Shown here one piece after another: positions 27,021-53,143 of a stretch of DNA of 64,000 bases (positions are counted from its first letter, which is position 1; every line of letters starts with the position of its first letter). The notes below the pieces were generated by a model. The model was given only the letters and a program-made list of their open reading frames with translations, ran no database searches and was not told where the DNA came from. The stretch is from Raillietiella orientalis (Eukaryota): positions 1-64,000 of the forward strand of contig JAYWIR010000132.1 in NCBI GenBank assembly GCA_036172245.1, read 5' to 3'. Position numbers and translations under genes: made by a program.

Positions 27021-27073
27021 TTCAATTTCCACACTGAAGATGTGGCAACCACATCTTCAGTGTGGAAATTGAA
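27021..27073. repeat. Perfect inverted repeat, 25-bp arms, 3-nt loop
   Basis: TTCAATTTCCACACTGAAGATGTGG-caa-CCACATCTTCAGTGTGGAAATTGAA. Confidence 0.92.
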
Positions 27074-30813: not shown

Positions 30814-30842
30814 AGATAATCTGGCATCTTGCCAGATTATCT
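30814..30842. repeat. Perfect inverted repeat, 13-bp arms, 3-nt loop
   Basis: AGATAATCTGGCA-tct-TGCCAGATTATCT. Confidence 0.8.
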
Positions 30843-31733
30843 TTGTCCGCATGGAAACCCATGGAGTCGTACCCTTTAGAATTTTCGCTTCTTCATTTTT
30901 TTATCCAGATGTTGCTGCGTAAACCGATGTAGCTCTAAAGACACGTGATATCCAGAATCGCAAATTACTTTTCTTTGGAATGCACTTCTGTAAAGGTACA
31001 TTTGTCTGAGGTGCGATACCGAACAAGATACGTGAGCAGCGTATTGATGCGAAGCATCCCCACTTCCAGCAGCACCAAGGGAGCTCTTTGATTTCCGTTC
31101 TTCCCTTCACTGATAAATGCTTACGTGCAGAATGAATCAGTTCCCCCCTGAAAAGCAAAGTAACACAAATACATGAATGTTTGAGATGACGTCTCACCCA
31201 CAGGCACATTTCTATTCGGTGAAGACAATGGAAATTTAGTTAATGATGGGCTCGTTAAGAATCAGACAGACCTGGGACTTCATGTCGTGTTCTCGTCACC
31301 ACGAATACGGTTCGTCACCCATCATAGAGTAGACGTTGGAATTATCTCCTGAAGCACATATCTTCAAGTAGTGTTGCTCACCGTTGCGAAGGCAAGTCAC
31401 GCATATGGCATGGAAGTGCTACGTGAATAGCAAGCATGCGAGAGGTCGAGCTTTCAAAGGGTAGCAAGCAAACGCCAATTAGGGAAATGCGAAAACATTT
31501 CCCCAAAGACGTCTGCGCAACTGCCATCGCCTACGTGGTACCTTTTAGCATGAGTCAAGCACAAATACGAAATGCGATCCTTTACCACGTTGGGACCTAC
31601 AGGTGCGTCAGCGAAAAGGTGTCGTTAGCGGCTGCGTACTAACGACTGCAATTTCCCTATACAGTTGTCTGGCCTTCGCCTTCTTATCTCTTGCTGCTGA
31701 GTCATGATCTCTGTGAGATCTTAACCTGAGTGG

Positions 31734-34040
31734 TAACCGTCGATACGCCGTTCTTCCCCTGGCGTCCCGGGAATACCTAATCTCGTCCAGGATGTTCAAG
31801 TCACCCACGACGATGATGATGTCCTTCGGTGGCACTCGTTTGCGGAGTTCTTCTTGCAGTTTCTCCGCGCACCGATGCTTGATCTTGTGCGGTCCGTAAA
31901 CGTTCACCAGGAAGAGGTGAACGTTACTGGACCAGGACAGTCGCACGCCGATTACTCTGCCAGTTACCGGACAGATGGTTTCCAGAATGGTGTGGGCTAG
32001 CTCGTTCTTGATGAGACTCGCCACATCCATGGTACTCTTCTGTTCTTCGCTGGCGAACAGTTGTTCGTTTAAACGGCGTTCTATCTCCAGGGTGATCTGA
32101 TGCCCGATACGGTGGGCTTCTGAAATGGAAAGCATATCTTGTCTTGCGATGGTCCGGATGCCACTTTTGCTCTTGCCTTCGTTAGTAGGGCCATTGAGGT
32201 TCCAGGAGGCGATGTTAATTCACCTGACGGTGGACAGCCACGAGGCCTAAAACGGGTTTATTTACTTGTTTTTCTTGCTTTTCTTAGCATCTGCTGGGGA
32301 GACCTTTGCTGTTTCCCTGCAGAAGAAGCGGGTTTCTCACTACCGGCATCGCTCTCGGTGCCGGTGTGGGAGGTGGACTCTGGTTATTCCACGGAGCGTT
32401 CCGCCATGGCGATCACTTTGCGCGGGAGGATCTCTAGCGAGACCGTCGCACAGTAGGCCGCCTTGACATCGCAAAGCTGGGTCTCCAGTTTCTCCCGCTC
32501 CGGCTCCACACCCACGCGGTTGACGTTCTCATGGGTCTCGCAGATACGGTTCAGTAGCTGCTGCTGCTGCGCTTCTGTCCGGATTTGACGGATTTCTTCC
32601 GTAACCTTGACCACCTCCTCCGTGAGCTGCAGGGCATCCTGCGTCTCCGTGGTGGGTTCTGGCCTTTTCGCCTCCTCAATTTCTTCCGCAACCTCCATCG
32701 ACTCGCCTTCCACAGCTTCTACTTCCGGGGTAACAAGAGTTTGCTGCTCCCTGACGAGCATCTTCTTCCTCTTCCCTTTTTTCCCGAACTTTACAAACCC
32801 GTCCGCCTAAACCGGGGCGGCCTCCTTCGCCTTATTCTGCTTTTGTATTTGAGGTTTTATCACCTCCGCATCACCCTTTCCCTCACGGGGATTCGCCTCT
32901 CATCCTCCGGTAGTTGGCGTTCTCCGGACGACTCCATTTCGCATGCCCGGTTTGTTTGCAAAAGGAGCAAAGTTCGGGCATGCTGCAGTTTCGGACCTGA
33001 TCGCCCTGCTTCCCACAACGAAAACATCGCGACCTAGGGCATGCGCCCATCCGGTATCCAAAGTTTTTGCAACCGGTACAAAATATCGGCTGCTGCCTAT
33101 ATCGAATGGAGACATCTTGGAATGCCTTGTCGATATATCATTTCAAGGGATTTGCGCCCCCTCTTTCAGCTTCATCTTGATGAGCTCGCCCGAGTAGATG
33201 TTACCGGATATATTCTGGGTTTTCATCTCCAGAATTTCTCCGTACTGCGATAGGAAGTCCCACACCGTTTCTCGTTCGGTGAGTATTCCTATCTCGTTTT
33301 ACGAATACGGTCGTGTAAGGCATTTCCCCAATGCCTTGGACCATCTTCCCCTGTATATTAATCCTCTTCTCAATTAGGGTCTCTCGCAGGATTTCGCAAT
33401 CCGTGTACAAGATGAATCCCGCTGAATTCCGGAAGATCGCTTGAAGGCGATCGAAATCAGCATTGGTCTTGTATAAGGCACAGTACACCCCTTTTACATT
33501 GTTAAACCGGATTAATCCGGTTTTGAAAATCGTTGGTTTCTATGCCGGACTAAGACGAACCATCGGTTCTTTACACTTTGTGATGGTTTCGCTTCCGGCT
33601 TACGAATTTTCTGTTCGGCTGGGCACTGGCCTGTCCCGCCGCCATCGTCGCATAAGATAAAGGCTGCACCGCCGCAGCCGAGCAAGATGGCGTCGCAACT
33701 TGTAGCATGAGCACCGCGTCGACGTCCGCGGGTCCCGCGTGGGGCTCAGCCGCCGCGGGCGCAACCCTCGGCATTGCCGCCGTTATCGCTGAAGCAGGCG
33801 GAACCCTCGGCATCACCGCCGCGGGCGCGATCCTCGGCGTCGTCGCCGCGGTCACGACCTCTAAGGTCGTTGCCGCGGGCACGACCTTTGGCAACGCCGC
33901 AGCCGGCGAAGAAATTGGCGCCTCGAGCGCGATCGTCGGCATCGGCGCCGTCTCGCCATTGCCGTACTGTAACTCCATCTGCATGGGAGACGTCGGCCTC
34001 TCCGCTCCTCTTCCTTCCTGTATCCTTGCGGCCACCGCCA
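31734..34040 (-). mobile_element. Tx1/L1-clade LINE copy E5 (family A-related, most decayed): ORF1 plus N-terminal part of the endonuclease, truncated at both ends
   Basis: Fragments YCALYKTNADFDRLQAI...GEMPYTTVFV, coiled-coil tail AYCATVSLEILPRKV and EN segment HLFLVNVYGPH..VGDLN..AYRRL, all homologous to neighbouring copies. Confidence 0.9.
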
Positions 34041-35672
34041 GCCTTCGCCATGTTGGTGAACACCAGCACCACGTCCTCGATGACCTATCGGCTGAGTCCC
34101 ACGGTGGCCTGGCCACACTTGACATTGTCCAATATGTGGCGTCCGTGCACCGCACATGTTTGGACCGGAGAGATCAGCCTCGACATGACCCTGCCTAAGC
34201 GGTTGGACCAGATCTTCGCCAACCACTTGGCATCGGAGTTCAGGATCGAGATTGGCCTCCATTGACCGACCTGCGTGAGATCGCCTCCTTTTGGCAAGAA
34301 TCTCATCCGACTCTCGTAGAAGGATTCCGGTAGTCTTCCTTGTACTCGGATGCAGTGTCACCTGGTGGAACACACGCAGGTAGGCGTGCAAGTACCGCTG
34401 ATAGTGCGAGATGGGTACACTATCAGGGCCTGCTGCCACGTCCTTGCGAAGTTGCCCAAACGCAGCCTTCGCTTCATCTTCGGATAACTTCTCCTCCAGT
34501 CTACTTCTTTAGAGGTCGTCCGTCCTCTTCTCGAGGTATCCCAGGAAGGCTTGCTGACTCGAGCGGCAGAGATCTTGTCGTCGGAAGTGTCTCGCGTAAT
34601 GCCTGTGAAAGGCTTCCGCGATATCATCCGACGTGTGCCGCTCTTGGCCGTCGTACTGGGTGCAGAAGATATCTGTTGCCAGATTTCTCTTTACCAGCAC
34701 GCCGAACTCCCCTTTCCTGTTCTGGAAGACGTACCGACTCTCGTACTGATCGAAGTACTTCGACAGGGAGCGATCTTGGATGTTCAGCTCCTGGTACGCT
34801 TCCTGCCACATGCCCTTACAGAAATACTGCATGTTGCAGAAGAGATGGATTCTGTGCTTCAACCGGTCCCAGTCGGCGACCCTGCGGATGGTAGTATCTT
34901 GCAGGATCGCCTCGATGACTTCCTGGTGACCGGGAAGCGTTTCGAACCAGGCGGGCATGCAGATGAGCGCCGCCCTGGTGGCCTTTTCTTTACGAGGATT
35001 CTCAGTGCGGAGTGTAAACCGTACCAATGGGTGATCGGACAACAGGTGTGGAATGTCACGAAAACCCTGGATGCGGTTGTCTATCTCCGCACTGTGGAGG
35101 ACGTGATCGATCGGCTTGTGGCTAGCCGTTCGCCACACAAGTCCGAACTCGTCGGACAGCCGCCGATACGCCGCTCTTCACCTTGCATCCTGAGAATACT
35201 TGATTTCATCAAGGATGTTGAAATCCCCAGCGACGATGGCTATGTCCTTCGGTGCCACTCGTTTGCGGAGTTCTTCTTGCAGTTTCTCCGCGCACCGATG
35301 CTTGATCTTGTGCGGTCCGTAGACGTTCACCAGGAAGAGGTGAACGTTACTGGACCAGGACAGTCGCACGCCGATTACTCTGCCAGGTACCGGACAGAAG
35401 GTTTCCAAAATGGTGTGGGCGAGCTCGTTCTTGATGAGGATCGCCACCCCCATGGTCTTCTTCTGTCCCTCGCTGGCGAACAGTTGTCCGTCGAATCGGC
35501 GTTCCATCTCCAGGGCGTTCTGTTGCCCGAGACGGTGGATTTCTTGTAGGCACACCACATTAAATTTTGCGATGGTCCGCATGATGATCTTTCTCTTTCC
35601 CTGGTCCGTCAGTCCATTCACATTCCAGGAGGCGATGTTAATCCTCCTGGCACTGGACAGCGACGAGGCCAT
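34041..35672 (-). pseudogene. E4 ORF2 (APE endonuclease + start of RT), disrupted and truncated
   Basis: SWNVNG, CLQE, AGDFN, IDH, SDH and WRPISILNSDAK motifs; in-frame TGA at 35178. Confidence 0.9.
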
Positions 35673-35688
35673 GAAAGGGGAGAGAGTC

Positions 35689-37448
35689 CTACTTGTTTTT
35701 GCGCGCCTTCCTTAACTTCTTCTGCTGGGGAGACTTGTTAAGTTTCCCCGCTGAAGAAGTGGGTTTTTCGCTACCGGCATCGCTCTCGGTGCCGGTGTGG
35801 TCGGTCGACTCGGGATCTTCTCCGGAGCGTTCCGCCTTGGCGATCACCTTGCGCGGGAGGGTCTCCAGGGAGACCGTCGCGCAGTAGACCGCCTTGACTT
35901 CCGAGAGCTGGGCCTCCAGCTTCTCTCGCTCCGGCTCCACAACCATACGGTTGACTTCGTCTTGAGCCTCGGAGATGCGGGTCAGGAGTTGCTCCTGTTG
36001 CGCCTCTGTCTGGCCTTGACGAACTTCCTCCGCTAGTTTGACCACCTCCTCGGTGAGTTGCAGGGCCTCCTGCGACTCCGGGGTGGGTTCCGGCATCTTC
36101 ACCACTTCCTCTGTCACCTCCATCTTCTCGCCTTCCACTGCTGCAACCTCACGAGTAGGGGGGTTTGTTGCTCCCTCACGAGCATCTTCCTCTTCCCCTT
36201 TTTCCCTATCTCGACGAACCCGTCCGCCGAGACCGGAGCTGCCTCCCTCACCTTCTTTTGTTTGGCTAGCTGAGGTTTGATCACCTCAGCTAGCACCCTT
36301 TCCCTCACGGGGGATTCTCCACGGATTGTCCGGTAGTTAGCAAACTCCGGACAACTCCATTTCGCATGCCCGGGTTGTTTGCAGAAAGAGCAAACTTCGG
36401 GCATGGTGCAATTTCGGACCACGTGGCCCATCTTTCCGCACCGGAAACAGCGCGACCTAGGGCACGCGCCCATCCGGTGGCCAAAGTTTTTGCAGCCGGT
36501 GCAAACGATCGGCTGCTGCCTGTATCGAATTGAGACGTCCTGCGACGCCTCGTCGATATGGACGTTTCCGGGGATTTGCGCCCCCTCCTTTAATTATATC
36601 TTGGCGATCAGCTCGCCCGAGAAGATGTTTCCGGAGATGTTCTGGGTTTTCATCTCTAGAACTTCTCCGTATTGGGACAGGAAGTCCCACACCGTTTGTC
36701 TCTCGGTGAGGATACCAAGGCCATTCACGAAGACGGTCGTGTAAGGCATCTCGCCGATGCCTTGCACCATCTTCCCTTGGATATTGATGCCCTTTTCGAT
36801 AAGGGCCTCCCGCAGCTCCTCGCAGTCTGTATAGAGGATAAATCCCGCTGAGTTCGGGATTATCGCCTGCAGCCGGTCAAAATCGACGTTTGTCTTATAG
36901 AGGGCGCAGTACACCTCCCTCACATTGTTGAACCGGATCAGTCCGGTTTTAAAAATTATCGGCTTGGACGCCGGGCTGAGTCGAACCATCGGCTCTTTCG
37001 TTCGAGTGATGATTTCACTCGCCGGTATGCCGAATGTTCTGTTTGGTTGGGCAGAGGCCTGCCCCGCCGTCACCGCCGCATACGAAAAAGGCGGCTTCGC
37101 CGCCGTCGCCGAGCAAGATGTCGTCGCACCTTGCACTGTGTGCGCCGCGTGGACGCCCGCGGCTCCCGCCTGGGACGCCGCCGCCACCGCGGGCGCAACC
37201 CTCGTCGTCGCCGTCGCCGATGTCGCCGTAGGCGGGACCTTCGGCATCGCCGCCGCCGGCACGACCTTCCCCGCCGCGGGCGCGATCCTCGGCGTCGCCG
37301 CCGCGGGCACGACCACCATCGCCGTCGCCGCGGGCACGACCCTCGGCATCGCCGCCGCCGGCGCAGCAAAGCCTGCCGCGGGCGCGACCCTCGGCGTCGC
37401 CGCTGCCTCCTCGCCAGTGCCGCATATTACCTCCATGTGTTCTTCCAT
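35689..37448 (-). pseudogene. E4 ORF1 (Ala/Pro-rich repeats, RRM-like region, 3 CCHC zinc knuckles, coiled-coil tail)
   Basis: CTGCKNFGHRMGAC, CFRCGKMGHVVRNC, CSFCKQPGHAKWSC. Premature stop at 36594 and frameshift near 36140. First ATG at 37448, but the frame is open further upstream. Confidence 0.88.
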
Positions 37449-37620
37449 GGGGGTCGACGGCTGCTCCACTTCCTGTAGGTGCCTCCTTGCGGCCGCCGTT
37501 GCTGCCGCACTTCCTGTTTGGAGGACTTCCACCTCGGGTCCTTCGGCGCTGCTGCTTCTGCTGCTGTCGGGTATTTCCCTCGGTGGCACAGTCACTTCCA
37601 CACTATTCTTCACCAGGCAC

Positions 37621-37748
37621 TTGCCCTGTCAGGGCACTCAAAAATTGCCGCGGCAGTGGTTTTACGCACTGCCTTGGCGGGGTATTGGGTAAAGTTTTCA
37701 ACTAGCAATAATCGCGGCTCAGTGGCCTTCCTCGCCTATTTTCCCCAG
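37621..37748 (-). ncRNA. U4: U4 snRNA-like sequence at the E3/E4 junction (5' end non-canonical, 3-nt deletion in the 5' stem)
   Basis: Minus strand reads GAGCCGCGAUUAUUGCUAGUUGAAAACUUUACCCAAUACCCCGCC...GGCAAUUUUUGAGUGCCCUGACAGGGCA, matching the metazoan U4 core, Sm site and terminal hairpin. Confidence 0.85.
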
Positions 37749-37894
37749 GTCCCACAAGGGGTGGGGTAAATTTATTTTTCTATAAAACATTCACGCTACA
37801 TTCACATTCATACAATTTCACTTCTTTTGGACTTATCACTTGGGCACTTTTCTTTAAAGTTCACTTCTGGGCGTCTGAAAACTCACTGCTCTAC

Positions 37895-40800
37895 TTACCT
37901 GGGATCCGCTTGGGTTCGGAGACTTCCTTCTATCCTTCTCAGGATGTGTCGGTTGTTCCAAACTTGCACTCGACCGCAGTTTCGGATGCCAATCTCCTTC
38001 TGGATAAACCCTTGCAGGATCTCCATCGGAGATATGGCGGTCCTCGTGGTCCTCATCTTCCACCACCGCACAAGGATGGCGGTGATGAAAAGGGCGATGG
38101 TCAATCTGACCATGGGGTTGTAGCGTGTAACCGTTCCAGTTCCCTGGAACATTCCTGCCAGAACGTCCATGGTCGAGGCGTTGTGCAGCCCGATGACCCT
38201 TTTCAGGGTTGTCCACTCGGATTGCAATGTGGGACAGGTCAAGACATGTCTGTCTGACTCTAATCCACCACATGCTTTGCAGGTTTCTTCTTCTCGTCGT
38301 CCCGTGAAGAGCTTCATTCTCGTGCCGCACAGGATCCCCCCATGATAAAACATGAGGAGGTTGGCCTGTGTATCTGGTGGTAGGTCTCTCCTACATAGTA
38401 CAGTACCGATCGCTAGTGGGTTAAATCCACTGCTTGCGTGTCGGTCGGCAGCATCTTGGAGGGCACTGTGATCTTGTTCTTCCGTGATTATTTCTTTCTT
38501 GTTCTTCTTCGTTACCCTGAACCACGCATGGTTACGATGACTTTTCCATACCTCGCGGGTCTTCAAGGTAACGGATCCACTCATCCTTTCCACGTGCCGA
38601 AGTACCCTTGAATGATGAAGGTATCTTGGCCGTGTCCAGGATTCCAGTTCTCCGAAGGTAACTCTGGACCGCTGGCGTATCCAGCTCCTCGTGTCATCCT
38701 GCACGGGGAGCATCCAGGGGATAACCAGGATGGATTCCTCCTGCCAGAGTTCCTTGCTCCTCGGCATGATCTTGATCCCCTCGCTCTTCATCAGTCGCTG
38801 TTTCCGCCTCCACGTTGGGTCGATCGTTGATCATTCGTCCACTCTGCCGACGAGCGCAGTCATCAGGCCCCTCGAGTTGTTAATTAACAACGAGTATGCC
38901 CTATGTGCCGCGTACGGCCAGTCGTCCCAGTTGGAAGACATCTCCAGGATGTGTCGCACGTCCATGCTGTTCACGGCGTGTGCATTCGACTTCATCCCGG
39001 TTCCTCCCTCCTCCCTCGGACGACAAAGTGGCTTCAGGCGTACTCTCGGACGGTATCCTCCCCACAGGGTCTTCCTCTGTAGCTTTTCCACTTCTCGCTT
39101 GGTGTCTTTCGACATGTTGCTGAAGGCCGCTCCGAAAAGTATCTTCGGAAGGAGAACTCCATTCCAAAGGTTGGCCCTCTGCTTCATGTTGAAGTCCGAG
39201 CGCATGTACTTCGCTCCTTCTTCAGATACTTTCCCCAGGATTTCCTTCCACAACAGTTGGGATGCGGATGCATCGCCAATGTGGATACCTAGGTACTTAA
39301 TCGTGTCCACCGTACGGAAACCTTCACTCACGATTTTGTGAGGTCCAGGATGCCGACGGGCAAGAGTTTGCTTTTCTGGGCATTGATTTTAAGCCTCAGT
39401 CCTTTCTCCATGAGCTCAACCACATGCAAGAAGCCTCGCTGATCTCTCTCCCCTTTAAGAAAGAAGAGAAGATCGTCCGCGTAGGCAAGATGGGTGAGTC
39501 TCTGTTTGTCAATTTCGATTCCTCGGAGATACCCGGTTCTGTCGATGAACGACGAGAGGGCCTCCATGTAGATGACAAACAGCATCGGACTTAGCGCGTC
39601 GCCCTGACGGACTCCGTGTTCCATCCTGATAGCTGCTGTCGTTTCCCCATTGACGGTGATGCGGAATTCTTGGTCTTGTAGTACCATCCTGACGAGGTTG
39701 CTGAAGTATTCCGGGAGGTCCAGTCTTCCTAGAATCTTCAGCAGCATCCCATGGTCTACCGTGTCGAAGGCTTTCTCCATGTCAGTGAACACCAGCACCA
39801 GGTTCTCGCCTGTGTATCGGCTGAGTCCTATGGTGGCTTGAGCACACTTGACTTTGTCCGACATGTGACGACCGGGCACCGCACATGTCTGGACCGGAGA
39901 TATAAGCCGCGGCATGACCTTGCCTAAGCGGTTGGCCCAGATCTTCGCCAACCACTTGGCATCGGAGTTCAGGATCGAGATTGGCCTCCATTGAGTGACC
40001 TGCGTTAGGTCACCGCCTTTCGGCAACAATCTCATCCGACTCTTGCTGAAGGACTTTGGTATTCTTCCTTCTTCTTTGATGCATAGCGTCAGCTGGAGGA
40101 ACAGTCGCCGGTAGGCATGCAGATACCTCTGATAGTGGGAGATTGGAATACTATCAGGGCCTGCCGCCACATCCTTGCGAAGTTCCTGGAACGCAGCTTT
40201 CACTTCTTCATCGGAGATATCTTCTTCCAGCATCTACTTGCTCTTCTCGTCAAGCCGGTTTTCCAGATGTTTCAGGAATACTTGTTCGTATGTCTCGTCC
40301 AGTTGTTTCATACGGAAGTGTTCTGCATAATGCCTGTGGAAGGCTTCTGCGATGCCCTCCGTCTTGTTCCTCGTCTGGCCTGCGTACTGGATGCTGAAGA
40401 TATCTGTTGCCAGATTCTTCTTCTCCAGTACGCCAACTTCACCCTTGATGCTGCTGAAGACGTAACGGCTCTGGTACTGTTGCCAGTACTTGGAGAGCGA
40501 GCGATCTTGGATGTTGAGCTCGCGGTACGCCTCCTGCCTCATTCTCTTGTCGCCAAACTGTATGTTGCAGAACAAATGGATGCGGTGCTTGAGGCTGTAC
40601 CAATCGGCGACCCTGCTGATGGTTGTTGTTTGCAGGATCACCTCCATCAGATCTTGATGATGGGGATGGGTCTCGAACCATTGGGGCATGGTGAGAATTG
40701 CCTCCCTCGTTGGCTTGCTTCGTCGAGGGTTTTCCGTCCGCAAGGTGAACCTCATCAACGGATGATCGGACACAGAGTGGGGAGTGTCTCGAAAACCGAG

Positions 40801-41403
40801 GACTCGGTTCCCAATGTCGGCGCTGTAGAGAACGTGGTCGATCGGCTTGTGGCTCGCTGTCAGCCACTGGAATCCGAACTCGTCGGAAAGCCGCCGATAC
40901 GCCTCCCTTCCTCTGACGTCCCGGGAATAGATGACTTCGTCCAGGATGTTGAAGTCCCCAGCGATGATGACGATGTCCTTCGCCTGCACTTTCTGGCGGA
41001 GGGCTTCATAAAGCACCTCCACGCACTGGTGCTTTAGGTGATGCGGCCCGTAAACGTTCACCAGGAATAGGTGAACGTTCGCGGACCAGGACAATCGTGA
41101 GACGAGAATTCTTCCAGGAACGGGACAGAAGACTTCGAGGATGGTGGCGGCAAGGTGGTTCATGATTGCCGTTGCCACCCCCATGGTGTACCTCTGTCCC
41201 ACGCTGGTGAACAGTTGGACGTTCATTCGTCTCTCCAATTCCAGTCTGATCTGCTGCCCCATCTCGTGGGTTTCCTGCAGGCAAACGATGTCGAAGTGCC
41301 TGATCTTGTGGGCTATTCTTGGTCTTCGCACCGGATCTTGCATTCCATTGACGTTCCAGGAGGCGATGGTCAGTCTCCCGGCTGTCGACAAGGATGAGGC
41401 CAT
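37895..41403 (-). pseudogene. E3 ORF2: APE endonuclease, reverse transcriptase, C-terminal zinc finger (~1170 codons; 2 stops, 1 frameshift)
   Basis: SWNVNG/LQETH/GDFN/IDH/SDH; WRPISILNSDAK, DMEKAFD, GVRQGDALSP, YADD, KYLG; CKACG..HVLTC. Stops at 40234 and 38831, frameshift near 39330. Confidence 0.95.
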
Positions 41404-41415
41404 AAAAGGGTGGTT

Positions 41416-43131
41416 TTAGTTTTTGCCTTCCCGCAGCTTCTTCTGGCGGGGAGACCTTTCTCTCCTTACCGCCGTCGAAGCTGGCTTCTCACTCGCGGCA
41501 TCGCTCTCTCTGCCGGTGTGGTCTGTGGTGTCATTGTCCTGTTCACTGGAGCGCTCGAGCTTGGCGACTGTTTTCAGCTTAAGGTTCTCCAGGGAGACCT
41601 TGGCGCAGTAGTTCGCCTTTACGATGCAGAGCTTGTTCTCCAGCCTGCCGCGCTCTTCCGGATCTATGAAGGCGTTGATTCCCTCCTGAGTTTCCCCAAT
41701 GCGTGTCAGGAGCTTCGCCTGCTACACTTGGTTCACCTCCGCCTGTACCTCGTTTGCCAGCTTCACCACCTCCTCGGTGAGCTGCGCCGCCTCTTGCGAT
41801 GCCGGGGTAGCTTCAGTGATTTCCATCACCTCAGCTTCCGGCACTCCCTTCTGCTCAACAACCTCCTGCTGTCTTTCCACTGCCACGCCAACCGCCTGCT
41901 CGCCAACCTGCTGCATCTCCTCGCCTACCTGCTTCTCGGCCTGTGCAGAGGAGGAGGATTCGGGCTCCCTCACGAGCATCCTCCTCTTGCCGCCCTTCCC
42001 CACCGTCGTGAAGCCGTCCTCCGAAACGGGAGCGGCCTCCTTCGCCTTCCTCTGCTTCAGTGCTCTCTGAGGCTTGATCACCTCTTCGAGCACTCGCGCC
42101 CTGACCGGTGACTGGCCCCTCATCGTCCGGTAATTGGCAAACTCGGGGCAGCACCATATTGCGTGCCCTGGGGCCTTGCAAAATGAGCATACCTCCGGCA
42201 TGCTGCAATCCCGGACTTGGTGGCCTTGCTTCCCACAGCGGAAGCATTTCGATTTGGGACAGACACGCTGCCTGTGGCCGAACGATTTGCAACCGTTGCA
42301 GAAAACGGGTTGCGCCCTGTACCTCACAGAGACTCCCTGATCGTCACCCTCGAAATGGATGGTTCCAGGAATCTGGGCATCCTCCAACAGCTTCATCCTT
42401 ACAGTCGCTTCTCCCGAAAAGATCTTCAACGAAATGTTGTGGTAATTGCGGTCCAGTACCTCGCCGTACTGCGACAGGCGTTTCCACACAGCCTTCTGTG
42501 TGATAAACGGCCTTAGCCCGCTCAGAAAAACGGTGGTGTACGGCATTTCGCCGACTGCACACACCATTTTACCCTGGATGTTGATTCCTTTTTCGATGAA
42601 CTCCTGGCGGAGTTCATCGCACTCTGTGTAGATCGTGAACCCGAATGGCCCGGGCACGATCGCCTGCAACTTATCAAAGCCTACCTGTTGCTTGTACAGC
42701 GCCAGGTAGACTTCCCGAATGTTATGCATCCTGATGAGCCCTGTTCGAAACGTAACCTTCTTGACGTTTGGGCCCAACTTGACTATGGGCTCGTCAACGT
42801 CCTTAATCGGCCCGGACTCGGGCCTTCCGAATTTTCTCTGCGGTTGGGTTGTTGCCTTCCCAGCCGCCACCGCCGCATAGGAAAACGTCGCCGCCGCCGG
42901 CAACCGCCCCACGGTCGCAGCCACCGCGCAAGATGACGTCGCGTCATTAGCAACGGTTGGGCCTACGAGCCCTGCCGTTGCTAGGGACGCTTCCGCCGTC
43001 GCCGTCTCCTTCGCAGCCACCACCGTGGCCTGCCTTGCCTCCACCGCCGGTGTGGCGCCAGAAACACACGATTGCCCTACCTCCATAGGCTGAGGCTTCT
43101 CCGTGGTTCCCATCCACGGCATCTGTTGCAT
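41416..43131 (-). pseudogene. E3 ORF1 (RRM-like region, 3 CCHC knuckles, coiled coil), one premature stop
   Basis: CNGCKSFGHRQRVC, CFRCGKQGHQVRDC, CSFCKAPGHAIWCC; TAG at 41722 where copy E1 has CAG. Confidence 0.9.
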
Positions 43132-43270
43132 CTTGACGGGGTGCTGCTGCACCGCCGCCGGGGAGGGTCGCGACTCCTACACCTTGGACTCCCTCTGGTT
43201 GCTGCTGGTGCTGCTGCAGTCGCTGTGGGACGTCCTGGGTAGCGCACTCACTGTCTTTACACTTAAGCAC

Positions 43271-43402
43271 TTGCCCTCTCGGGGCACGCAAAAATTCCCG
43301 CGGCAGTGGTTTTACGCACTGCCTTGGCGGGGTATTGGGTAAAGTTTTCAACTAGCAATAATCGCGGCTCAGTCGCCTTCCTCGCCTACGATTTTCCCCA
43401 AG
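43271..43402 (-). ncRNA. U4: U4 snRNA-like sequence at the E2/E3 junction
   Basis: CUUGGGGAAAAUCGUAGGCGAGGAAGGCGACUGAGCCGCGAUUAUUGCUAGUUGAAAACUUUACCCAAUACCCCGCC-hairpin-AAUUUUUG-CG-UGCCCCGAGAGGGCA. Confidence 0.88.
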
Positions 43403-43538
43403 TCCCACAGGGGGTGGGGTGAATTTATTTTCTATAAAAATAGCATTCACACTACAATTTTCATTCACACTCTCATTCACGCCACGTTTACCAACACTTG
43501 TTCACTTGGATGTCCTGGGTTTCACTCGAGTTCTGCTA

Positions 43539-46500
43539 TCAGGTTGGGGGTCCAGATGTTTGTTCCCGGGCGTCGTCCTCGATCCTCTTCAGGATGAATC
43601 TGTACGTCCAGGCTTGGATTCTTCCGCAGTTCCTGATGCCGATTTCCTTCTTCAGGAGTCCTTGGAGGATCTCCATCGGAGGTGCGGCTCTCCTGGCTTT
43701 CCTCATCTTCCACCACCGCACAAGTATGGCGGTGATGAAGAGGGCGATGGTCGTCCTCACCATGGGATTGTAACAGGGAACATTACCATCTCCCTGAAAC
43801 ATCCCGGCGAGGATTTCCATTACGGAGCTGGTGGTGCGTCCGATGATCCTTTTCAGGATCAGCCAGTCGTGAAGCAGTGTGGGACACGTCAAGATGTGGA
43901 GTCTTGTGTCAGTGTCACCACACCCCGTGCAGTCTCTGTCGTCCCTCGTTCCCGTGAAGTGCTGTAGTCTGGACCCCGTCAGAATTCCTCCATGGTAGAA
44001 CATCAGGAGGTTGTCCTGGGTGTCCGGCGGAAGGTCACTCCTCCAGAGCGTTGTGCCGATCGCCAACAGGTTGATGCGATCGCTCCCGTAGCGGTCGGCG
44101 GCTTCTTGGAGGGCACTGGTGTCCTTTTCCTCGTCTCTGATCATCTTCCGCAGGTTCATTTTGGTCACCCTCGACCACGCGAAGTCGTTGTTGTTAATCC
44201 ACACCTCGCAGGTCTGGTGGGTGAACCTCCCTAACATCATCTCTATGTACCGAAGTACACGAGAATGATGTAGGTATCCTCCTCGGAGCCATTCCTGGAT
44301 CCGTTGCAGGGTAACTCTGGGCCGCTTGTAGATCCAGCTTCTCGTGTCCGAAGGGACCGGAAGCATCCAGGGGATCACCAGGATGGACTCGTCCTGCCAG
44401 AGTTCCCTGCTTCTTGGCACGATCTTCATCTTGTGCTTTCGCACAAGCCGCTGTTTTCTTCTCCAGGTAGGGTCGATGGTGATCCATTCCCCTGCTCGGC
44501 CTAGCAGCGCAGTCATCAGGCCTTTCGAGTTGTTGAGCAACAACGCGTAGGCCCTGTGCGCCGCATACGGCCAGTCATCCCAGTGGGTGGCTATGTCCAG
44601 GATGTGTCGCGTATCCATGATTTCCATGGAATGTGCAGGCGACTTCATCCCGGAACCGCCTTCTTCCCTGGGACGACACAGAGGTTTGAGACGGACTCTT
44701 GGGCGATAATGGCCCCACAAAGTTTTTCTTTGCAGCTTTTCTACTTCCCTCGTGGTATCTTTATTCATTCTTGCGAAGGCCGCCCCAAAGAGTATCTTTG
44801 GTAGAAGTACTGCGTTCCAAAGGTTGGCTCTTCGCTTCATGTTTAAGTCCACTCGAGTGTACTTTGCTGCTTCCTTAGACGTTTTCCCCAGGATTTCCGT
44901 CCACAGCAGCTTCGACGCAGAGTCGTCGCCGATGTAGACTCCCAGGTACTTGGCCGTATCCACCGTACGGAATCCACTCCCCGTTAGAGTGGAGAGGTTC
45001 AGGATACCGACGGGCAAAAGCTGGCTTTTTTGGGCGTTGATTTTCAAGCCCAGTCCCTGTTCCATGAGGTCGACCACATCCAGGAACGCTTGTTGATTCC
45101 TCTCTCCCTTGATGAAGAGGAGGAGATCATCTGCGTATGCCAGATGGGTCAGGTGCTGACCATCAATGGAAATCCCTGATAGGCGACCGCTTCTCTCGAT
45201 GTAAGAAGACAGCGCATCCATGTATATGACGAACAGCATTGGACTTAGCGAGTCGCCCTGCCGGACTCCTCGTTCCATCCTAATTGATGCCGTCTCTTGG
45301 CCGTTGATTTTGATACGGCAGTACTGGTTTTGGAGTACCGCCCTCACGAAGTTGCTGAACTGTTCCGGAAGCCCAAGCTTCTGCAGAACTTTCAGCAGCA
45401 TCCCGTGGTCGATGGAGAAGAAGGCCTTCTCCATGTCAGTGAATACCAGCACCAGGTTCTCGCCGACGTATCGGCTGAGTCCGACGGTGGCCTGGGCGCA
45501 CTTGACATTGTCAGACATGTGTCGTCCTGGGACTGCACACGTCTGGACCAAAGAGATCAGCCTCGACATGAACCTGCCTAAGCGGTTGGACGAGATCTTC
45601 GCCAATCACTTTGCATCTGAGTTTAGGATCGAGATCGGCCTCCATTGAGCGACCTGCGTGAGATCGCCTCCTTTTGGCAGCAATCTCATCCTACTCTCGA
45701 AGAAGGATTCCGGAAGTCGTCCTTCTTCTCGGATGCAGAGTGTCAACTGGTGGAACAAACGCAGGTAGGCGTGCAGGTACCGCTGACAGTGCGAGATTGG
45801 TACACTATCAGGGCCTGCTGCCACATCCTTGCGAAGCTGCCCAAACGCAGTCTTCACTTCCTCTTCGGAGAACGCCTCCTCCAGTCTACTTCTTTGGAGG
45901 TCGTCCGTCCTCTTCTCGAGGTAACCCAGAAAGGCTTGCTGACTCGAGCGGAAGAGATCTTGTCGTCGGAAGTGTCTCGCGTAATGCCTGTGAAAGGCTT
46001 CCGCGATATCCTCCGACGTGTGCCGCTCTTGGCCGTCGTACTGGATGCAGAAGATACCTGTTGCCAGATTCCTCTTTTCCAGCACGCCGACCTCCCCTTT
46101 CATGTTCTGCAAGACGTACCGACTCTCGTACTGATCGAAGTACTTCGAGAGGGAGCGATCTTGGATGTTCAGCTCCCGGTACGCTTCAAGCCTCATGCGC
46201 TTACAAAAGTACTGCATATTGCAGAACAGATGGATCCTGTGCTTCAACCTGTCCCAGTCGGCGACTCTGCGGATGGTGGTGTCCCGCAGAATCGCCTCGA
46301 TGACCTTCTGGTGACAGGGAAGCGTTTCGAACCAGGCGGGCATGCAGATGAGCGCCGCCCTGGTGGCCTTTTTCCTATGGGGATTTTCAGTGCGGAGTGT
46401 AAACCGTACCAATGGGTGATCGGACAACAGGTGTGGGATGTCACGAAAACCCTGGATGCGGTTGTCTATCTCCGCACTGTGGAGGACGTGATCGATCGGC

Positions 46501-47047
46501 TTGTGGCTAGCCGTTCGCCACACAAGTCCGACAGCCGCCGATACGCCGCTCTTCACCTTGCATCCTGAGAATACTTGATTTCATCAAGGCTGTTGAAATC
46601 CCCAGCGACGATGACTATGTCCTTCGGTGCCACTCGTTTGCGGAGTTCTTCTTGCAGTTTCTCCGCGCACCGATGCTTGATCTTGTGCGGTCCGTAAACG
46701 TTCACCAGGAAGAGGTGAACGTTACTGGACCAGCACAGTCGCACGCCGATTACTCTGCCAGGTACCGGACAGAAGGTTTCCAAAATGGTGTGGGCGAGCT
46801 CGTTCTTGATGAGGATCGCCACCCCCATGGTCTTCTTCGGTCCCTCGCTGGCGAACAGTTATCCGTCGATTCGGCGTTCCATCTCCAGGGCGTTCTGCTG
46901 CCCGAGACGGTGGATTTCTTGTAGGCACACCACATCCTGTCTTGCGATGGTCCGCATGACACTTTTTCTCTTTCCCTGATCCGTCAGTCCATTCACATTC
47001 CAGGAGGCGATGTTAATCCTCCTGGCACTGGACAGCGACGAGGCCAT
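43539..47047 (-). pseudogene. E2 ORF2: APE endonuclease, RT, zinc finger (disrupted)
   Basis: Same motif set (GVRQGDSLSP, YADD, CTGCG..HILTC). Stops at 46859, 46553 and 45606; ~10-bp deletion near 46530 relative to E4. Confidence 0.95.
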
Positions 47048-47087
47048 GAAAGGGGAGGGAGTCCTACTTCATTTTTCTTGCCTTGCT

Positions 47088-48824
47088 TTACTTCTTCTGC
47101 TGGGGAGACTTGTTCAGTTTCCCCGCTGAAGAAGTGGATTTTTCACTGCCGGCATCGCTCTCGGTGCCGGTGTGATCAGTGGACTCCTGTTCGTCCACAG
47201 AGCGTTCCGCCTTGGCGACCACCTTGCGCGGAAGGGTCTCCAGCGAGACCGTCGCACAGAATGCTGCCTTGAGGTCGCCTAACTGATCCTCCAACTTTTC
47301 CCGCTCTCTTTCTACAACCATGCGGTTGACGTCGTCTTGGACCTCACAGATGCGGTCCAGGATTTTTGTCTGTTCTGCCTCCGGTTGGCCCTGGCGAACC
47401 TCTTCCGCCAGTTTTATCACTTCCTCGGAGAGTTGCAGGGCCTCCTGCGTCTGCGTGACTGGTTCTGGCGTCTTCTCCTCCTTCTCCGTTTCCTCCGCCA
47501 CCTCCATGCTCTTGCCTACCACTGCTTCAACTACCGGGGTTTGAGGAATCTGATGCTCCCTTGCGAGCATCTTCCTTTTCCCCTTCTTCCCCACCTTCAC
47601 GAAACCGTCCGCCGAAACCGGAGCGGCCTCTCTTGCTTTCCTCTGTTTTGCTAGCTGAGGTTTGATTACCTCAGCTAGCACCCTTTCCCTCACTTGGGAC
47701 TCTCCTCTAATCGTCCGGTAGTTTGCATACTCCGGACAACTCCATTTCGCATGCCCTGGTTGCTTGCAGAAGGAGCAAAGCTCGAGCATGCTACAGTTCC
47801 GGACCTGGTGGCCCTGTTTCCCGCACCTGAAGCAGCGAGATCTAGGGCAGGCACCCATCCGGTGGCCAAAGTCCTTGCAACCGAGACAGAAGATCGTTTG
47901 CTGGCGGTACCTGACGTTCACCTCTTGCGAGGCTTCGTCAATGTGCAGCAAACCCGGGATTTGGGCACCTTCCTTAAGTTTAATATTGGCGAATACTTCG
48001 CCCGAGAAGATGTCTCCGAAGATGTTCTGGAAGTTTACATCCAAAACCTCCCCGTATTTCTCCAGGAAATCCCACACCGTTTTTTATTCGGTGAAGATTC
48101 CCACTCCGCTGAGATGGACGGTGGTGTAACGCATTTCGCCTACGCCTTGTACCATTTTGCCTTGAATATTGATACCCTTTTCGATTAGGGCCTCCCGCAA
48201 TTCTTCGCAGTCCGTGTACAGTGTAACACCTGACGTGCTAGGAATGATCGCTTGGAGACGATCAAAGTCGACGTTGGTTTCAAAGTGAGCACAGTACACC
48301 TCTCTTACATTATTAAACCGGATCAATCCGGTCTTGAACATAATTGGTTTCGACGCTAGACTTAAGCCAACCATTGGTTCTTTGCATCGCGTGATGCGTC
48401 CAGTCGTCGGCTTCTTAAATGTTCGGTTTGGCTGGGCAGAGGCCTGCCCCGCCGTAACCGCCGCATACGAAAACGGCTTTGTAGCCGAACCCGAACAAGA
48501 TGGCGTCGCCATGTACGCCGCGTGGACGCCCGGGGCTCCCGCCTGGGACGCCGCCGCCGCCGCTGCGGGCGCAACCCTCGTCGTCGCCGTCGCCGATGTC
48601 GCCGTAGGCGGGACCTTCGGCATCGCCGCCGCCGGCACGACCTTCCCCGCCGCGGGCGCGATCCTCGGCGTCGCCGCCGCGGGCACGACCTCCATCGCCG
48701 TCGCCGCGGGCACGACCCTCGGCATCGCCGCCGCCGGCGCAGCAAAGCCTGCCGCGGGCGAGACCCTCGGCGTCGCCGCTGCCTCCTCGCCACTGCCGCA
48801 TATTACCTCCATGTGTTCTTCCAT
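47088..48824 (-). pseudogene. E2 ORF1 (Ala/Pro repeats, RRM-like region, 3 CCHC knuckles), premature stop
   Basis: CLGCKDFGHRMGAC, CFRCGKQGHQVRNC, CSFCKQPGHAKWSC. In-frame TAA at 48084; the frame is open upstream to 49013. Confidence 0.9.
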
Positions 48825-48996
48825 GGGGGTCGACGGCTGCTCCACTCCTTGTATGTGCCTCCTTGCGGCTGCCGTTGCTGCCGCACTTCTTGTTTGGAGG
48901 ACTTCCACCTCGGGTCCTTCGGCGCTGCTGCTGCTGCTGCTGTCGGGTATTTCCCTCGGTGGCACAGTCACTTCCACACTATTCTTCACCAGGCAC

Positions 48997-49128
48997 TTGC
49001 CCTGTGAGGGCACACAAAAATTGCCGCGGCAGTGGTTTTACGCACTGCCTTGGCGGGGTATTGGGTAAAGTTTTCAACTAGCAATAATCGCGGCTCAGTC
49101 GCCTTCCTCGCCTACGATTTTCCCCAAG
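48997..49128 (-). ncRNA. U4: U4 snRNA-like sequence at the E1/E2 junction
   Basis: Core identical to the copy at 43271-43402; Sm site AAUUUUUG (49015-49022), terminal hairpin UGCCCU-CAC-AGGGCA. Confidence 0.88.
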
Positions 49129-49285
49129 TCCCACAGGGGGTGGGGTAAATTTATTTTCTGTAAAACATTCACGCTACAATCACATTCATACACTTTCACT
49201 TTTCTTTTTCCTCACTTGTCATCGATCACTTGGGCACTTGTTCTTAAAGTTCACTTCTGGGCGTCTGAAAAGTCCACTGCTCTAC

Positions 49286-52200
49286 TTACCTTGGATCCGC
49301 TTGGGTTCGGAGACTTCCTTCTATCCTCCTCAGGATGTGTCGGTAGTTCCAAACTTGCACTCGTCCGCAGTTTCGGATGCCAATCTCCTTCTGGATCAAC
49401 CCTTGCAGGATCTCCATCGGAGATATGGCGGTCCTCGTGGTCCTCATCTTCCACCACCGCACAAGGATGGCGGTGATATAAAGGGCAATGGTCACTCTGA
49501 CCATGGGGTTGTAGCGTGGAACCGTTCCAGTTCCCTGGAACATTCCTGCCAGAACGTCCATGGTCGAGGCGTTGTTCAGCCCGATGACCCTTTTCAGGGT
49601 TGTCCACTCGGATTGCAATGTGGGGCAGGTCAAGACATGTCTGTCTGAATCTAATCCACCACATGCTTTGCAGGTTTCTTCTTCTCGTCGTCAGGTGAAG
49701 AGCTTCATTCTCGTGCCGCACAAAATCCCCCCATGATAAAACATGAGGAGGTTGTCCTGTGTATCTGGTGGTAGGTCACTCCTCCATAGTACCGTACCGA
49801 TGGCTAGTGGGTTAAATCCACTGCTTGCGTATCGGTCGGCAGCATCTTGGAGGGCACTGTGATCTTTTTCTTCCGTGATTATTTGTTTCTTGTTCTTCTT
49901 CGTTACCCTGGACCACGCATGGTTACGATGACTTTTCCATACCTCGCGGGTCTTCAGGGTATCGGATCCACTCATCGTTTCCACGTGCCGAAGTACCCTT
50001 GAATGATGAAGGTATCTTCGCCGTGTCCAGGATTCCAGTTCCCCGAAGGTAACTCTGGACCGCTGGCGCATCCAGCTCCTCGTGTCATCCTGCACGGGGA
50101 GCATCCAAGGGATAACCAGGATGGATTCCTCCTGCCAGAGTTCCTTGCTTCTCGGGATGAACTTGATCCCCTCGCTCTTGGTTAATCTTTGTTTCCGCCT
50201 CCAAGTTGGGTCGATGGTTGACCATTCGTCCACTCTGCCGACGAGCGCAGTCATCAGGCCCCTCGAGTTATTAATTAACAACGAGTATGCCCTATGCGCC
50301 GCGTACGGCCAGTCGTCCCAGTTGGAAGACATCTCCAGGATGTGTCGCACCTCCATGTTGTTCACGGCGTGTGCAGGCGACTTCATTCCGGTTCCTCCCT
50401 CCTCCCTCGGTCGACAAAGTGGCTTCAGGCGTACTCTCGGACGGTATCCTCCCCACAGGGTCTTCCTCTGTAGCTTTTCCACTTCTCGCTTGGTGTCTTT
50501 CGACATGTTGCTGAAGGCCGCTCCGAAAAGTATCTTCGGAAGGAGAACTCCATTCTAAAGGTTGGCCCTCTGCTTCATGTTGAAGTCCGAGCGCATGTAC
50601 TTCGCTCCTTCTTCAGATACTTTCCCCAGGATTTCCTTCCACAACAGTTGGGATGCGGATGCATCGCCTATGTGGATACATAGGTACTTAATCGTGTCCA
50701 CCGTACGGAAACCTTCACTCACGATTATTGTGAGGTCCAGGATGCCGACGGGCAAGAGTTTGCTTTTCTGGGCATTGATTTTAAGCCTCAGTCCTTTCTC
50801 CATGAGCTCAACCACATGCAAGAAGCCTCGCTGATCTCTCTCCCCTTTAAGAAAGAAGAGAAGATCGTCCGCGTAGGCAAGATGGGTGAGTCTCTGTTTG
50901 TCAATTTCGATTCCTCGGAGATACCCGGTTCTGTCGATGAACGACGAGAGGGCCTCCATGTAGATGACAAACAGCATCGGACTTAGCGCGTCGCCCTGAC
51001 GGACTCCGTGTTCCATCCTGATAGCTGCTGTCTTTTCCCCATTGACGGTGATGCGGAATTCTTGATCTTGTAGTATCATCCTGACGAAGTTGCTGAACTG
51101 TTCCGGAAGCCCAAGCTTCTCCAGAACCTTCAGCAGCATCCCATGGTCGATGGAGTCGAAGGCCTTCTCCATGTCAGTGAACACCAGCACCAGGTTCTCG
51201 CCTCTGTATCGGCTGAGTCCTATGGTGGCTTGAGCACACTTGACTTTGTCCGAGATGTGACGACCGGGCACCGCACATGTCTGGACCGGAGATATAAGCC
51301 GCGGCATGACCTTGCCTAAGCGGTTGTCTCGTCCAGTTGTTTCATACGGAAGTGTTCTGTATAATGCCTGTAGAAGGCTTCTGCGATGTCTTCCGTCTTG
51401 TTCCTCGTTTGGCCTGCGTACTGGATGCTGAAGATATCTGTTGCCAGATTCTTCTTCTCCAGTACGCCAACTTCACCCTTGATGCTGCTGAAGACGTAAC
51501 GGCTCTGGTACTGTTGCCAGTACTTGGAGAGCGAGCGATCTTGGATGTTGAGCTCGCGGTACGCCTCCTGCCTCATTCTCTTGTCGCCAAACTGTATGTT
51601 GCAGAACAAATGGATGCGGTGCTTGAGGCTGTACCAATCGGCGACCCTGCTGATGGTTGTTGTTTGCAGGATCACCTCCATCAGATCTTGATGATGGGGA
51701 TGGGTCTCGAACCATTGGGGCATGGTGAGAATTGCCTCCCTCGTTGGCTTGCTTCGTCGAGGGTTTTCCGTCCGCAAGGTGAACCTCATCAACGGATGAT
51801 CGGACACAGAGTGGGGAGTGTCTCGAAAATTGAGGACTCGGTTCCCAATGTCGGCGCTGTAGAGAACGTGGTCGATCGGCTTGTGGCTCGCTGTCAGCCA
51901 CTGGAATCCGAACTCGTCGGAAAGCCGCCGATACGCCTCCCTTCCTCTGACGTCCCGGGAATAGATGACTTCGTCCAAGATGTTGAAGTCCCCAGCGATG
52001 ATGACGATGTCCTTCGCCTGCACTTTCTGGCGGAGGGCTTCATGAAGCACCTCCACGCACTGGTGCTTTAGATGATGCGGCCCGTAAAGGTTCCCCAGGA
52101 ATAGGTGAACGTTCGCGGACCAGGACAATCGTGAGACGAGAATTCTTCCAGGAACGGGACAGAAGACTTCGAGGATGGTGGCGGCAAGGTGGTTCTTGAT

Positions 52201-52437
52201 TGCCGTTGCCACCCCCATGGTGTACCTCTGTCCCACGCTGGTGAACAGTTGGACGTTCATTCGTCTCTGCAATTCCAGTCCGATCTGCTGCCCCATCTCG
52301 TGGGTTTCCTGCAGGCAAACGATGTCGAAGTGCCTGATCTTGTTTGCTATTCTTCGTCTTCGCACCGGATCTTGCATTCCATTGACGTTCCAGGAGGCGA
52401 TGCTCAGTCTCCCGGCTGTCGACAAGGATGAGGCCAT
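49286..52437 (-). pseudogene. E1 ORF2 (EN-RT-ZnF), disrupted
   Basis: EN and RT motifs as in E3; deletion near 51325, stops at 50555 and 49691. Confidence 0.93.
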
Positions 52438-52449
52438 AAAAGGGTGGTT

Positions 52450-53123
52450 TTAGTATTTGCCTTTCCGCAGCTTCTTCTGGCGGGTAGACCTTTCTCTCCT
52501 TACCACCGTCGAAGCTGGCTTCTCACTTCCGGCATCGCTCTCTGTGCCGGTGTGATCTGTGGTGTCAATGTCCTGTTCGCTGGAGCGCTCGAGCTTGGCG
52601 ACTGTTTTGCGCGAAAGGTTCTCCAGGGAGACCTTGGCGCAGTAGTTCGCCTTTACGATGCAGAGCTTGTTCTCCAGCCTGCCGCGCTCTTCCGGATCTA
52701 TGAGGGCGTTGATTCCCTCCTGAGTTTCCCCAACGCGTGTCAGGAGCTTCGCCTGCTGCACTTGGTTCACCTCCGCCTGTACCTCGTCCGCCAGCTTCAC
52801 CACCTCCTCGGTGAGCTGCGCCGCCTCTTGCGATGCCGGGGTAGCTTCAGTGATTTCCATCACCTCAGCTTCGGGCACTCCCTTCTGCTCAACAACCTCC
52901 TGCTGTCTTTCCACTGCCACGCCAACCGCCTGCTCGCCAACCGCCTGCTCGCCAACCTCCTGCATCTCCTCGCCTACCTGCTTCTCGGCCTGTGCAGAGG
53001 AGGAGGATTCGGGCTCCCTCACAAGCATCCTCCTCTTGCCGCCCTTCCCCACTGTCGTAAAGCAGTCCTCAGAAACGGGAGCGGCCTCCTTCGCCTTCCT
53101 CTGCTTCAGTGCTCTCTGAGGCT
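52450..53123 (-). pseudogene. E1 ORF1 C-terminal fragment
   Basis: PQRALKQRKAKEAAPVSED...QKKLRKGKY, homologous to the E3 ORF1 tail. Confidence 0.88.
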
Positions 53124-53143
53124 CTCTGGTAGATTGCTCTCGC

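Follow-up and report, generated by a model that had tools for sequence, protein, structure and literature searches.

Truncated U4 snRNA gene bodies between head-to-tail LINE copies: a possible new target of snRNA-gene-targeting non-LTR retrotransposons

The window, by which we mean the whole analysed stretch of 64,000 nucleotides, consists of a 277-bp satellite interrupted by a GC-rich block at 31737-53143. The satellite occupies 53147..64000 and also about 1-18000, flanking the block on both sides, and amounts to about 107 copies in register with 85-100% identity; its subtypes alternate, which suggests a higher-order repeat. An inverted and more divergent variant, with 276/277-bp units and a 553-bp dimer periodicity, lies at about 19000-25690. 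Between this variant and the GC-rich block there is about 6 kb of AT-rich (36-37% GC) unique DNA (25700-31736), in which we found neither an ORF of at least 150 aa nor any Rfam match above chance (a mir-547-like hit reached 27 bits against a gathering score of 90). The GC-rich block itself is made up of non-LTR retrotransposons (LINEs), all on the minus strand, arranged head-to-tail and belonging to two families, A and B. Read 5' to 3', the order is satellite, E1, U4b, E2, U4a, E3, U4c, E4, E5 and the AT-rich DNA of about 6 kb, where E1 to E5 denote LINE copies and U4a to U4c denote the U4-like modules.

The LINEs encode an ORF1 with a zf-CCHC domain and an ORF2 with an APE endonuclease (Exo_endo_phos, E 4e-16) and a reverse transcriptase (RVT_1, E 5e-27 and 6e-31), so that both enzymes of an autonomous element are found, in degenerate copies. 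E1 (49139..53143, minus strand), which belongs to family A and is 95-97% identical to E3, is 5'-truncated at position 1339 of the E3 reference (43412->37762, used for all LINE comparisons) and abuts the 277-bp satellite there. E2 (43413..48989, minus strand; family B) and E3 (37762..43264, minus strand; family A) are full length and degenerate. ORF1 of E2 carries an in-frame TAA at 48084 and its ORF2 is left in two pieces, 46580-45606 and 45605-43539 (RVT_1), with in-frame stops of all three kinds in each of the two frames. E3, the 3' UTR of which extends to 37762, has an ORF1 (zf-CCHC) running from an ATG at 43131 to a stop at 41725, followed by an ORF2 (APE, RT) that starts with an ATG at 41403 and is damaged by an in-frame TAG (40234-40236), a frameshift near 39388 and a further stop, and that ends with a TAA at 37895-37897. 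A segment of 357 bp in the APE/RT linker (39935-40290) is present in E3 and absent from E1. E4 (34041..37616, minus strand; family B) is mosaic with respect to E2 and 3'-truncated inside ORF2, and E5 (31737..33964, minus strand) is a fragment reaching from ORF1 to the APE region, truncated at both ends and 76-79% identical to E4 and E2. All of the LINE copies that flank the modules are dead through in-frame stops and frameshifts. A non-standard genetic code behind the in-frame stops was considered and dropped, since TAA, TAG and TGA all occur. A search of 5.8 billion proteins returned no close family of these LINEs, the nearest proteins being 22-38% identical and generic L1/Tx1-like entries with automatic names.

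Scanning the 64-kb window with cmscan against Rfam 15 yielded exactly three matches at or above the gathering score, all of them to U4 (RF00015, gathering score 46) and all on the minus strand. The module under study, U4a (43412-43273; 70.6 bits, E 1.1e-13), is placed between the 3' UTR of E2 and the 5' UTR of E3, U4b (49138-49000; 77.3 bits, E 2e-15) between E1 (family A) and E2 (family B), and U4c (37761-37624; 62.6 bits, E 1.5e-11) between E3 (family A) and E4 (family B). When 25000-54000 was rescanned with laxer filters, the same three U4 matches were recovered together with only two weak ones at chance level. An identity as U4atac was dropped, as clan competition keeps U4.

Each copy contains the kink-turn 5' stem-loop, the stem I strand, the 3' stem-loop, the Sm site and the terminal hairpin. 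An earlier note on this DNA had described these parts from the letters of the sequence, and its anatomy was borne out: the 5' stem-loop GGC-GAG-GA-AG-GCGA-CU-GA-GCC with its tandem G-A pairs, the strand for U6 stem I (UGCUAGUU), the 3' stem-loop GGCAGUG/CACUGCC and the Sm site (AAUUUUUG) are all present, and the three variants of the terminal hairpin (UGCCCU-GAC-AGGGCA, UGCCCU-CAC-AGGGCA and UGCCC-CGAGA-GGGCA) are exactly as it quoted them. The 5' stem-loop is carried by a lower stem, AUCGU/GCGAU, and its tetraloop is GCCA in U4c, which also lacks the UCG directly after AAAA at the LINE/U4 border. With regard to intactness, U4c is without three pairs of the lower stem and U4a has two broken pairs. 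In minimum-free-energy folds of the three modules, the 5' stem-loop formed in two, the 3' stem-loop in all three and the terminal hairpin in two, with all three structures appearing together in U4a only. Transcription of the module by Pol III was considered and dropped; a T run such as that of the Sm site terminates Pol III. The U4-like modules are real, and what is repeated is a structurally intact U4 body without the strand of U6 stem II.

The part of U4 that the modules lack is the 5' end. Similarity to U4 is unambiguous from AUCGUAGG on, which in U4a corresponds to 43391->43273, and the 21 nt that precede it (43412->43392, CCCUGUGGGACUUGGGGAAAA) are non-canonical for U4. Positions 1-10 of the RF00015 model (AUCuUUGcGC), a consensus that may not equal the host U4, match CCCUGUGGGA at 5 of 10 positions. 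A canonical U4 5' motif of 15 nt, with up to three mismatches allowed, had 0 occurrences in the window, where chance alone predicts 2.1. The absence of the canonical 5' strand that pairs with U6 in stem II, also claimed in the earlier note, holds when judged by the consensus, from which the host U6 may differ. Signs of an snRNA-type promoter, assessed by eye, consist of an upstream TATA-like/AATAAA motif and, downstream, only a weak 3'-box-like run.

At the other end, the U4 sequence is complete and continues beyond the terminal hairpin with the bases AGUGC(C/U)U (43265..43272 on the minus strand in U4a), of which AGUGC (43271->43267) is invariant among the three copies, the base at 43266 is C or U, and 43265 is U throughout. 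Similarity between the families collapses right after AAGUGC(C/U)U, and we propose this site as either the LINE 5' border or the site of top-strand cleavage. An AGTG-rich stretch on the minus strand (43180-43262 and 48900-48990; sequence in family A: GTGTAAAGACAGTG) is found in both LINE families directly after the U4 3' end; it bears a loose resemblance to an snRNA 3' box and leads into a (CAG)n run with which the ORF1 region starts.

Upstream of the module the border is of a different kind. The conserved 3'-terminal part of the LINE 3' UTR (43413..43477, minus strand) contains GTGAATG repeats, TTTTATAGAAAATAAATT (TATA-like/AATAAA) and then a C-rich run, and is about 88% alike between A and B, as compared with about 45-55% for the remaining UTR; similarity declines gradually through about 55 nt, and the GTGAATG repeats pass unbroken from the family-specific 3' UTR into the conserved stretch. 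AATAAA lies 26 nt before AAAA, which directly precedes UCGUAGG. This spacing and the continuity of the repeats indicate that the LINE 3' end reaches the U4 border, where, judging from its letters, it looks like a polyadenylation signal with a cleavage distance and a short A tail. All three LINE 3' termini (43413-43440, 49139-49165 and 37762-37790, minus strand) carry TTTTATAGAAAATAAATT, a TATA-like run overlapping AATAAA, and then CCCCACCCCCUGUGGG, which can form a small CCCAC/GUGGG hairpin and is kept across both LINE families.

LINE 3' ends are joined to U4 in 3 of 3 cases and in both families, twice at the same base and once with an offset of 3 nt, keeping in mind that all three junctions belong to one locus and hence have limited independence. 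U4c is missing UCG, and this sole length difference inside the block falls precisely on the AAAA|UCG border, the point at which similarity to U4 sets in; independent 3' junctions that were slightly displaced would give such an offset. Every intact LINE 3' end in the window is followed by a module (3/3), and every full-length LINE 5' end is preceded by one (3/3). The map of the borders thus identifies the module as a U4 gene body without its 5' end, with its 3' end and a little flank, fused to the LINE 3' end.

The conservation of the block stands out against that of its surroundings. Families A and B are about 73% identical overall, with 81-87% in the best RT windows and about 45-55% in the UTR flanks, whereas across the families the U4 block is identical at 95-99 of 100 positions. 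U4a and U4b have no difference over 123 columns (alignment A1, 202-324), a run that takes in the 21 non-canonical bases and every loop except the terminal one, and the 21 nt outside U4 and the loops are as conserved as the stems. Such a difference between blocks and families is expected of a host-derived or duplicated flank and not of a vertically inherited UTR.

The earlier note had gone further and proposed that selection acts on the modules at the RNA level. Its remark that base pairs are swapped but preserved holds when the Rfam consensus is the reference, as the helix differences are marked as pair-preserving in the cmscan alignment; these differences from vertebrate or consensus U4 may be those of the host lineage's own U4. 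The claim of selection itself did not find support. When the three modules were aligned on the U4 structure (26 pairs, 75 cells), 0 of 26 pairs had a compensatory change among the copies and none had a one-sided change with pairing kept, in a sample of three that gives a test for selection no statistical power. The changes that do fall in helices are disruptive: in U4a, G faces G at the foot of the 3' stem-loop and a closing pair is C-A, and in U4c a 3-nt deletion takes out three pairs of the lower stem. Three copies beside dead elements cannot show selection, and the modules are probably not an RNA element that selection maintains.

These data weigh against the reading in which the module would be selected within the retrotransposon transcript, bind Snu13/15.5K and an Sm ring without stem II pairing to U6, and so hijack snRNP biogenesis to gain stability, a hypermethylated cap or import into the nucleus. 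It would agree with the K-turn, the Sm site and both hairpins being intact in two of the three copies, with the pair-preserving character of the differences from the consensus, and with a U4 block whose conservation far exceeds that of all coding parts of the LINEs. Against it stand the lack of compensatory change together with the disruptive helix changes, and the fact that the copies are dead elements, so that their similarity reflects a recent common origin; moreover, the equal conservation of stems, loops and non-U4 bases suggests recent copying and argues against structural selection. We regard this reading as quite unlikely, and binding of Sm and Snu13, cap hypermethylation and nuclear import of the module, as suggested in the earlier note, are speculation. 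The stronger notion that the element RNA might deliberately carry the Snu13- and Sm-binding U4 body and ride on snRNP import, or, in a milder variant, that the duplication might rebuild an intact U4 gene at each insertion, appears to us just as improbable. Were the milder variant true, the duplication of ~140 bp would constitute a self-healing, reusable landing site.

The reading that we prefer, and to which we give a probability of roughly one half, is that the modules are 5'-truncated copies of a host U4 gene lying directly 3' of a U4-targeting, APE-type (L1/Tx1-like) LINE and duplicated or transduced with each insertion. The element endonuclease would nick U4 DNA on its bottom strand, somewhere in the first ~10-20 nt, and target-primed reverse transcription would attach the LINE 3' end (...AAUAAA-26 nt-AAAA) to the U4 sequence that starts at about nt 20. 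A top-strand cut a few bases past the U4 3' end would then duplicate the U4 body, about 140 bp, which would be unusually long for a target-site duplication; alternatively, the U4 remnant may have been carried along by read-through (3' transduction). Each insertion beside an existing remnant would add one LINE-U4' unit and in this way build a head-to-tail array of two families. With U4 as the target, the intact K-turn, Sm site and hairpins would be a legacy of a functional gene and not something that the element maintains, and the missing stem II strand would be the part of the gene beyond the insertion site. The earlier suggestion that the module could yield functional U4 if the host supplied the first ~10 nt comes close to this, in that the module would be what lies downstream of the point at which a site-specific LINE has split a U4 gene.

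The observations that support a target remnant include the polarity of the modules (U4 5' end absent; 3' end complete and followed by AGUGC, C/U and U beyond the terminal hairpin) and their context, all three U4 matches being located between head-to-tail LINE copies. No upstream half of U4 was found on the 5' side of any LINE in the window, where the flank is the 3' end of a truncated U4 (3/3 full-length copies) or satellite (E1). Given that the window holds no U4 5' half and that E1 lies against satellite, a test for target sequence on both sides of the insertion fails here, or the evidence was erased by rearrangement. The reading of U4 as a target is drawn from one locus, and the presence of a module before 3/3 full-length LINE 5' ends counters it, as this fits a module at the head of the element equally well.

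In that alternative, the LINE would own the module as an integral part, its 5' head (5' UTR). Either the head was captured once from U4, or transcription of the LINE starts, in the manner of Drosophila HeT-A, from a TATA-like promoter at the 3' end of the element upstream of it in the head-to-tail array; arrays would result from new copies inserting at the tails of old ones. A module in the same position in front of all three full-length 5' ends is what it predicts, and E1, which has no U4 on its 5' side, resembles an ordinary 5'-truncated first insertion into the satellite. Further, TTTTATAG, overlapping AATAAA, is situated about 23-27 nt upstream of the module start, and gene conversion, indicated by the mosaic map described below, could explain the high identity of the blocks. 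The U4 coding sequence, on the other hand, has no internal promoter, a property that speaks against its use as a head, and a further assumption would be required to explain why blocks in families 73% alike are 95-99% identical. The question of an internal promoter is also discussed for U1 and U2 in the consulted part of a paper on SINEU (PMC4494074), and the same part describes SINEU, which is mobilised by Tx1, as having 5' heads derived from snRNA, a precedent in favour of a head. In heads that arise by template switching it is the snRNA 5' end that survives and the 3' end that is lost, the reverse of the state of the modules.

Contigs of a sequencing run also give a hint against a 5' head. 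Among the sequencing runs searched for words sampled from the element, one DNA run, X1, matched, with 26% of the words, and no RNA run did; as X1 may be the source of the window itself, it is not independent support. It gave 83 Logan contigs on 37700-43700, most of which differ from the window by 5-15%. One contig of 455 nt (depth 25.9, 5 differences) runs unbroken from the 3' end of family-B ORF2 across the 3' UTR and all of the module, stopping 5 bases beyond it, and in other contigs differing LINE 3' regions are joined to the module start. The 5' regions had lower depth: a contig over the family-A 5' UTR and ORF1 start had a depth of 7.9 and 37 unaligned letters on the U4 side. Since contig ends are not molecule ends, this is only a hint that the module accompanies the 3' end of the LINE rather than its 5' end. 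On balance, we consider a 5' head possible and rather doubtful.

A third alternative dispenses with specificity for U4 altogether and has unequal crossing-over and gene conversion amplify either a tandem array of truncated U4 pseudogenes that was there beforehand (a U4-derived satellite) or one LINE-U4 pseudogene junction. The setting lends it some weight, as the cluster sits in satellite DNA with inversions and truncations, and tandem repeats with similarity to U4 and U5 are listed for a frog genome (PMC12054243, Table 2, from the consulted part of that paper). To examine the array itself, the two A-U4-B junction regions (45424-51326 and 34041-39934) were compared. The mismatch map is a mosaic in which blocks with 0-2 mismatches per 150 nt adjoin blocks with 34-46 (25-30% divergent), an example of the latter being 48500-47200 in ORF1. 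It has no step at either U4 border and, the copies being mosaic, it does not indicate which neighbour is the module's own. As read from this map, the mosaic points to recombination or gene conversion between LINE subfamilies, and gene conversion inside the array could alone keep the U4 blocks alike; together with the A-B-A-B order, it documents duplication and conversion of the kind that this alternative invokes. This alternative does not readily account for A-U4-B and B-U4-A junctions that both carry the module at the same borders, for the absence of a LINE-free U4-U4 dimer from the window, or for the X1 contigs that differ by 5-10% in the LINE body and also join the LINE 3' UTR to the module. 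We judge it unlikely.

Distantly related LINEs were used as a control only. A U4-like stretch was found in 0 of 80 metagenome LINE loci, the best 80 of 547 confirmed (413,913 bases; nhmmer, E<=10), which indicates that the association of LINE and U4 is specific to this lineage, and an exact pattern of the central 34 nt of U4 had 0 matches in the metagenome contigs.

Multicopy RNA genes serve some retrotransposons as homing sites, and such elements are models for safe-harbour integration and are sought as tools for targeted gene delivery. If targeting of U4 is confirmed, the list of targets would gain U4 and, with it, an APE-type endonuclease of new specificity, and the locus may exemplify a way of inserting in which nearly all of the gene body is duplicated. 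It would also carry a warning for annotation, since 'U4 genes' that are significant by Rfam would, in such arrays, be gene fragments.

Several known systems resemble this arrangement in part. The telomeric retrotransposon HeT-A of Drosophila forms head-to-tail arrays in which a 3'-terminal promoter drives the next element ('promoting in tandem'). The LINEs in the window share with it the head-to-tail array and a TATA-like box at the 3' end, but this box is a candidate promoter only, the context is not telomeric, and HeT-A has no segment derived from an snRNA. In kinetoplastids, SLACS is reportedly flanked by a target duplication of 49 bp. The insertion site of CZAR and SLACS, elements of trypanosomatid spliced-leader RNA genes, lies between nt 11 and 12 of the mini-exon (PMC5814959), and CRE-clade elements make target-site duplications of variable size (PMC12278014), as stated in the parts of these papers that were consulted. 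Insertion very near the 5' end of a small RNA gene of the Sm class is common to these elements and to the U4-targeting LINE that we propose. They differ from the LINEs in the window in having a restriction-like endonuclease, a single ORF, kinetoplastid hosts and a different target gene.

Chimeras of snRNA and LINE sequences offer a closer comparison at first sight. In the consulted sections, U6/L1 chimeras are described as carrying mostly full-length U6 ahead of a 5'-truncated L1 (PMC11838501), and SINEU heads as keeping the snRNA 5' end with the 3' side truncated, a product of template switching (PMC4494074). Both share with our modules a sense-oriented snRNA directly 5' of LINE sequence, and the mobilisation of SINEU by Tx1-type elements is a further likeness. 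In these chimeras, however, the snRNA retains its 5' end, and the point at which the LINE is truncated on its 5' side, as it usually is, varies. In the window, by contrast, the snRNA is without its 5' end and has its 3' end with some flank, and it meets full-length LINEs at a border that does not vary. A template-switch chimera was accordingly rejected, the 5' end being absent and the border fixed in 3/3 cases.

The closest parallel is found among elements that target snRNA genes. Utopia (RLE-type) and Keno (APE-type, Tx1 group) are non-LTR retrotransposons that target the U2 snRNA gene (Kojima & Jurka 2015, PMC4640811), and the part of this paper that was consulted gives, as of 2015, only U2 (Keno, Utopia), U1 (Dada-U1) and U6 (Dada-U6) as reported snRNA-gene targets. 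No U4-targeting element was found in the literature searched, in which a 2022 paper on Dada makes no mention of U4. From what the sequence and these sources offer, U4 seems to be a target so far unreported for such elements, and the locus probably represents a new target for a known kind, the non-LTR retrotransposons that target snRNA genes. The arrangement differs from that of Utopia and Keno, as described in the same part, in that the target is U4 and not U2, the break falls in the first ~10-20 nt and not at nt 38/39, and the snRNA body flanks both sides of every full-length LINE, which implies a long duplication or a transduction. It differs as well in that no upstream gene half is seen in the window; for U2-targeting elements, according to the consulted text, the upstream fragment is often not found and is absent with Utopia in Phytophthora (PMC4640811). 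It is like them in having a 5'-truncated fragment of an snRNA gene directly after the element 3' UTR, a precise 3' junction, several element families in one array and tandem insertions, and like Keno in its APE-type endonuclease. By analogy with these elements, and as far as the consulted parts of the sources describe them, the pattern of the modules matches the signature of U2-gene targeting and is the reverse of that left by template-switch snRNA heads.
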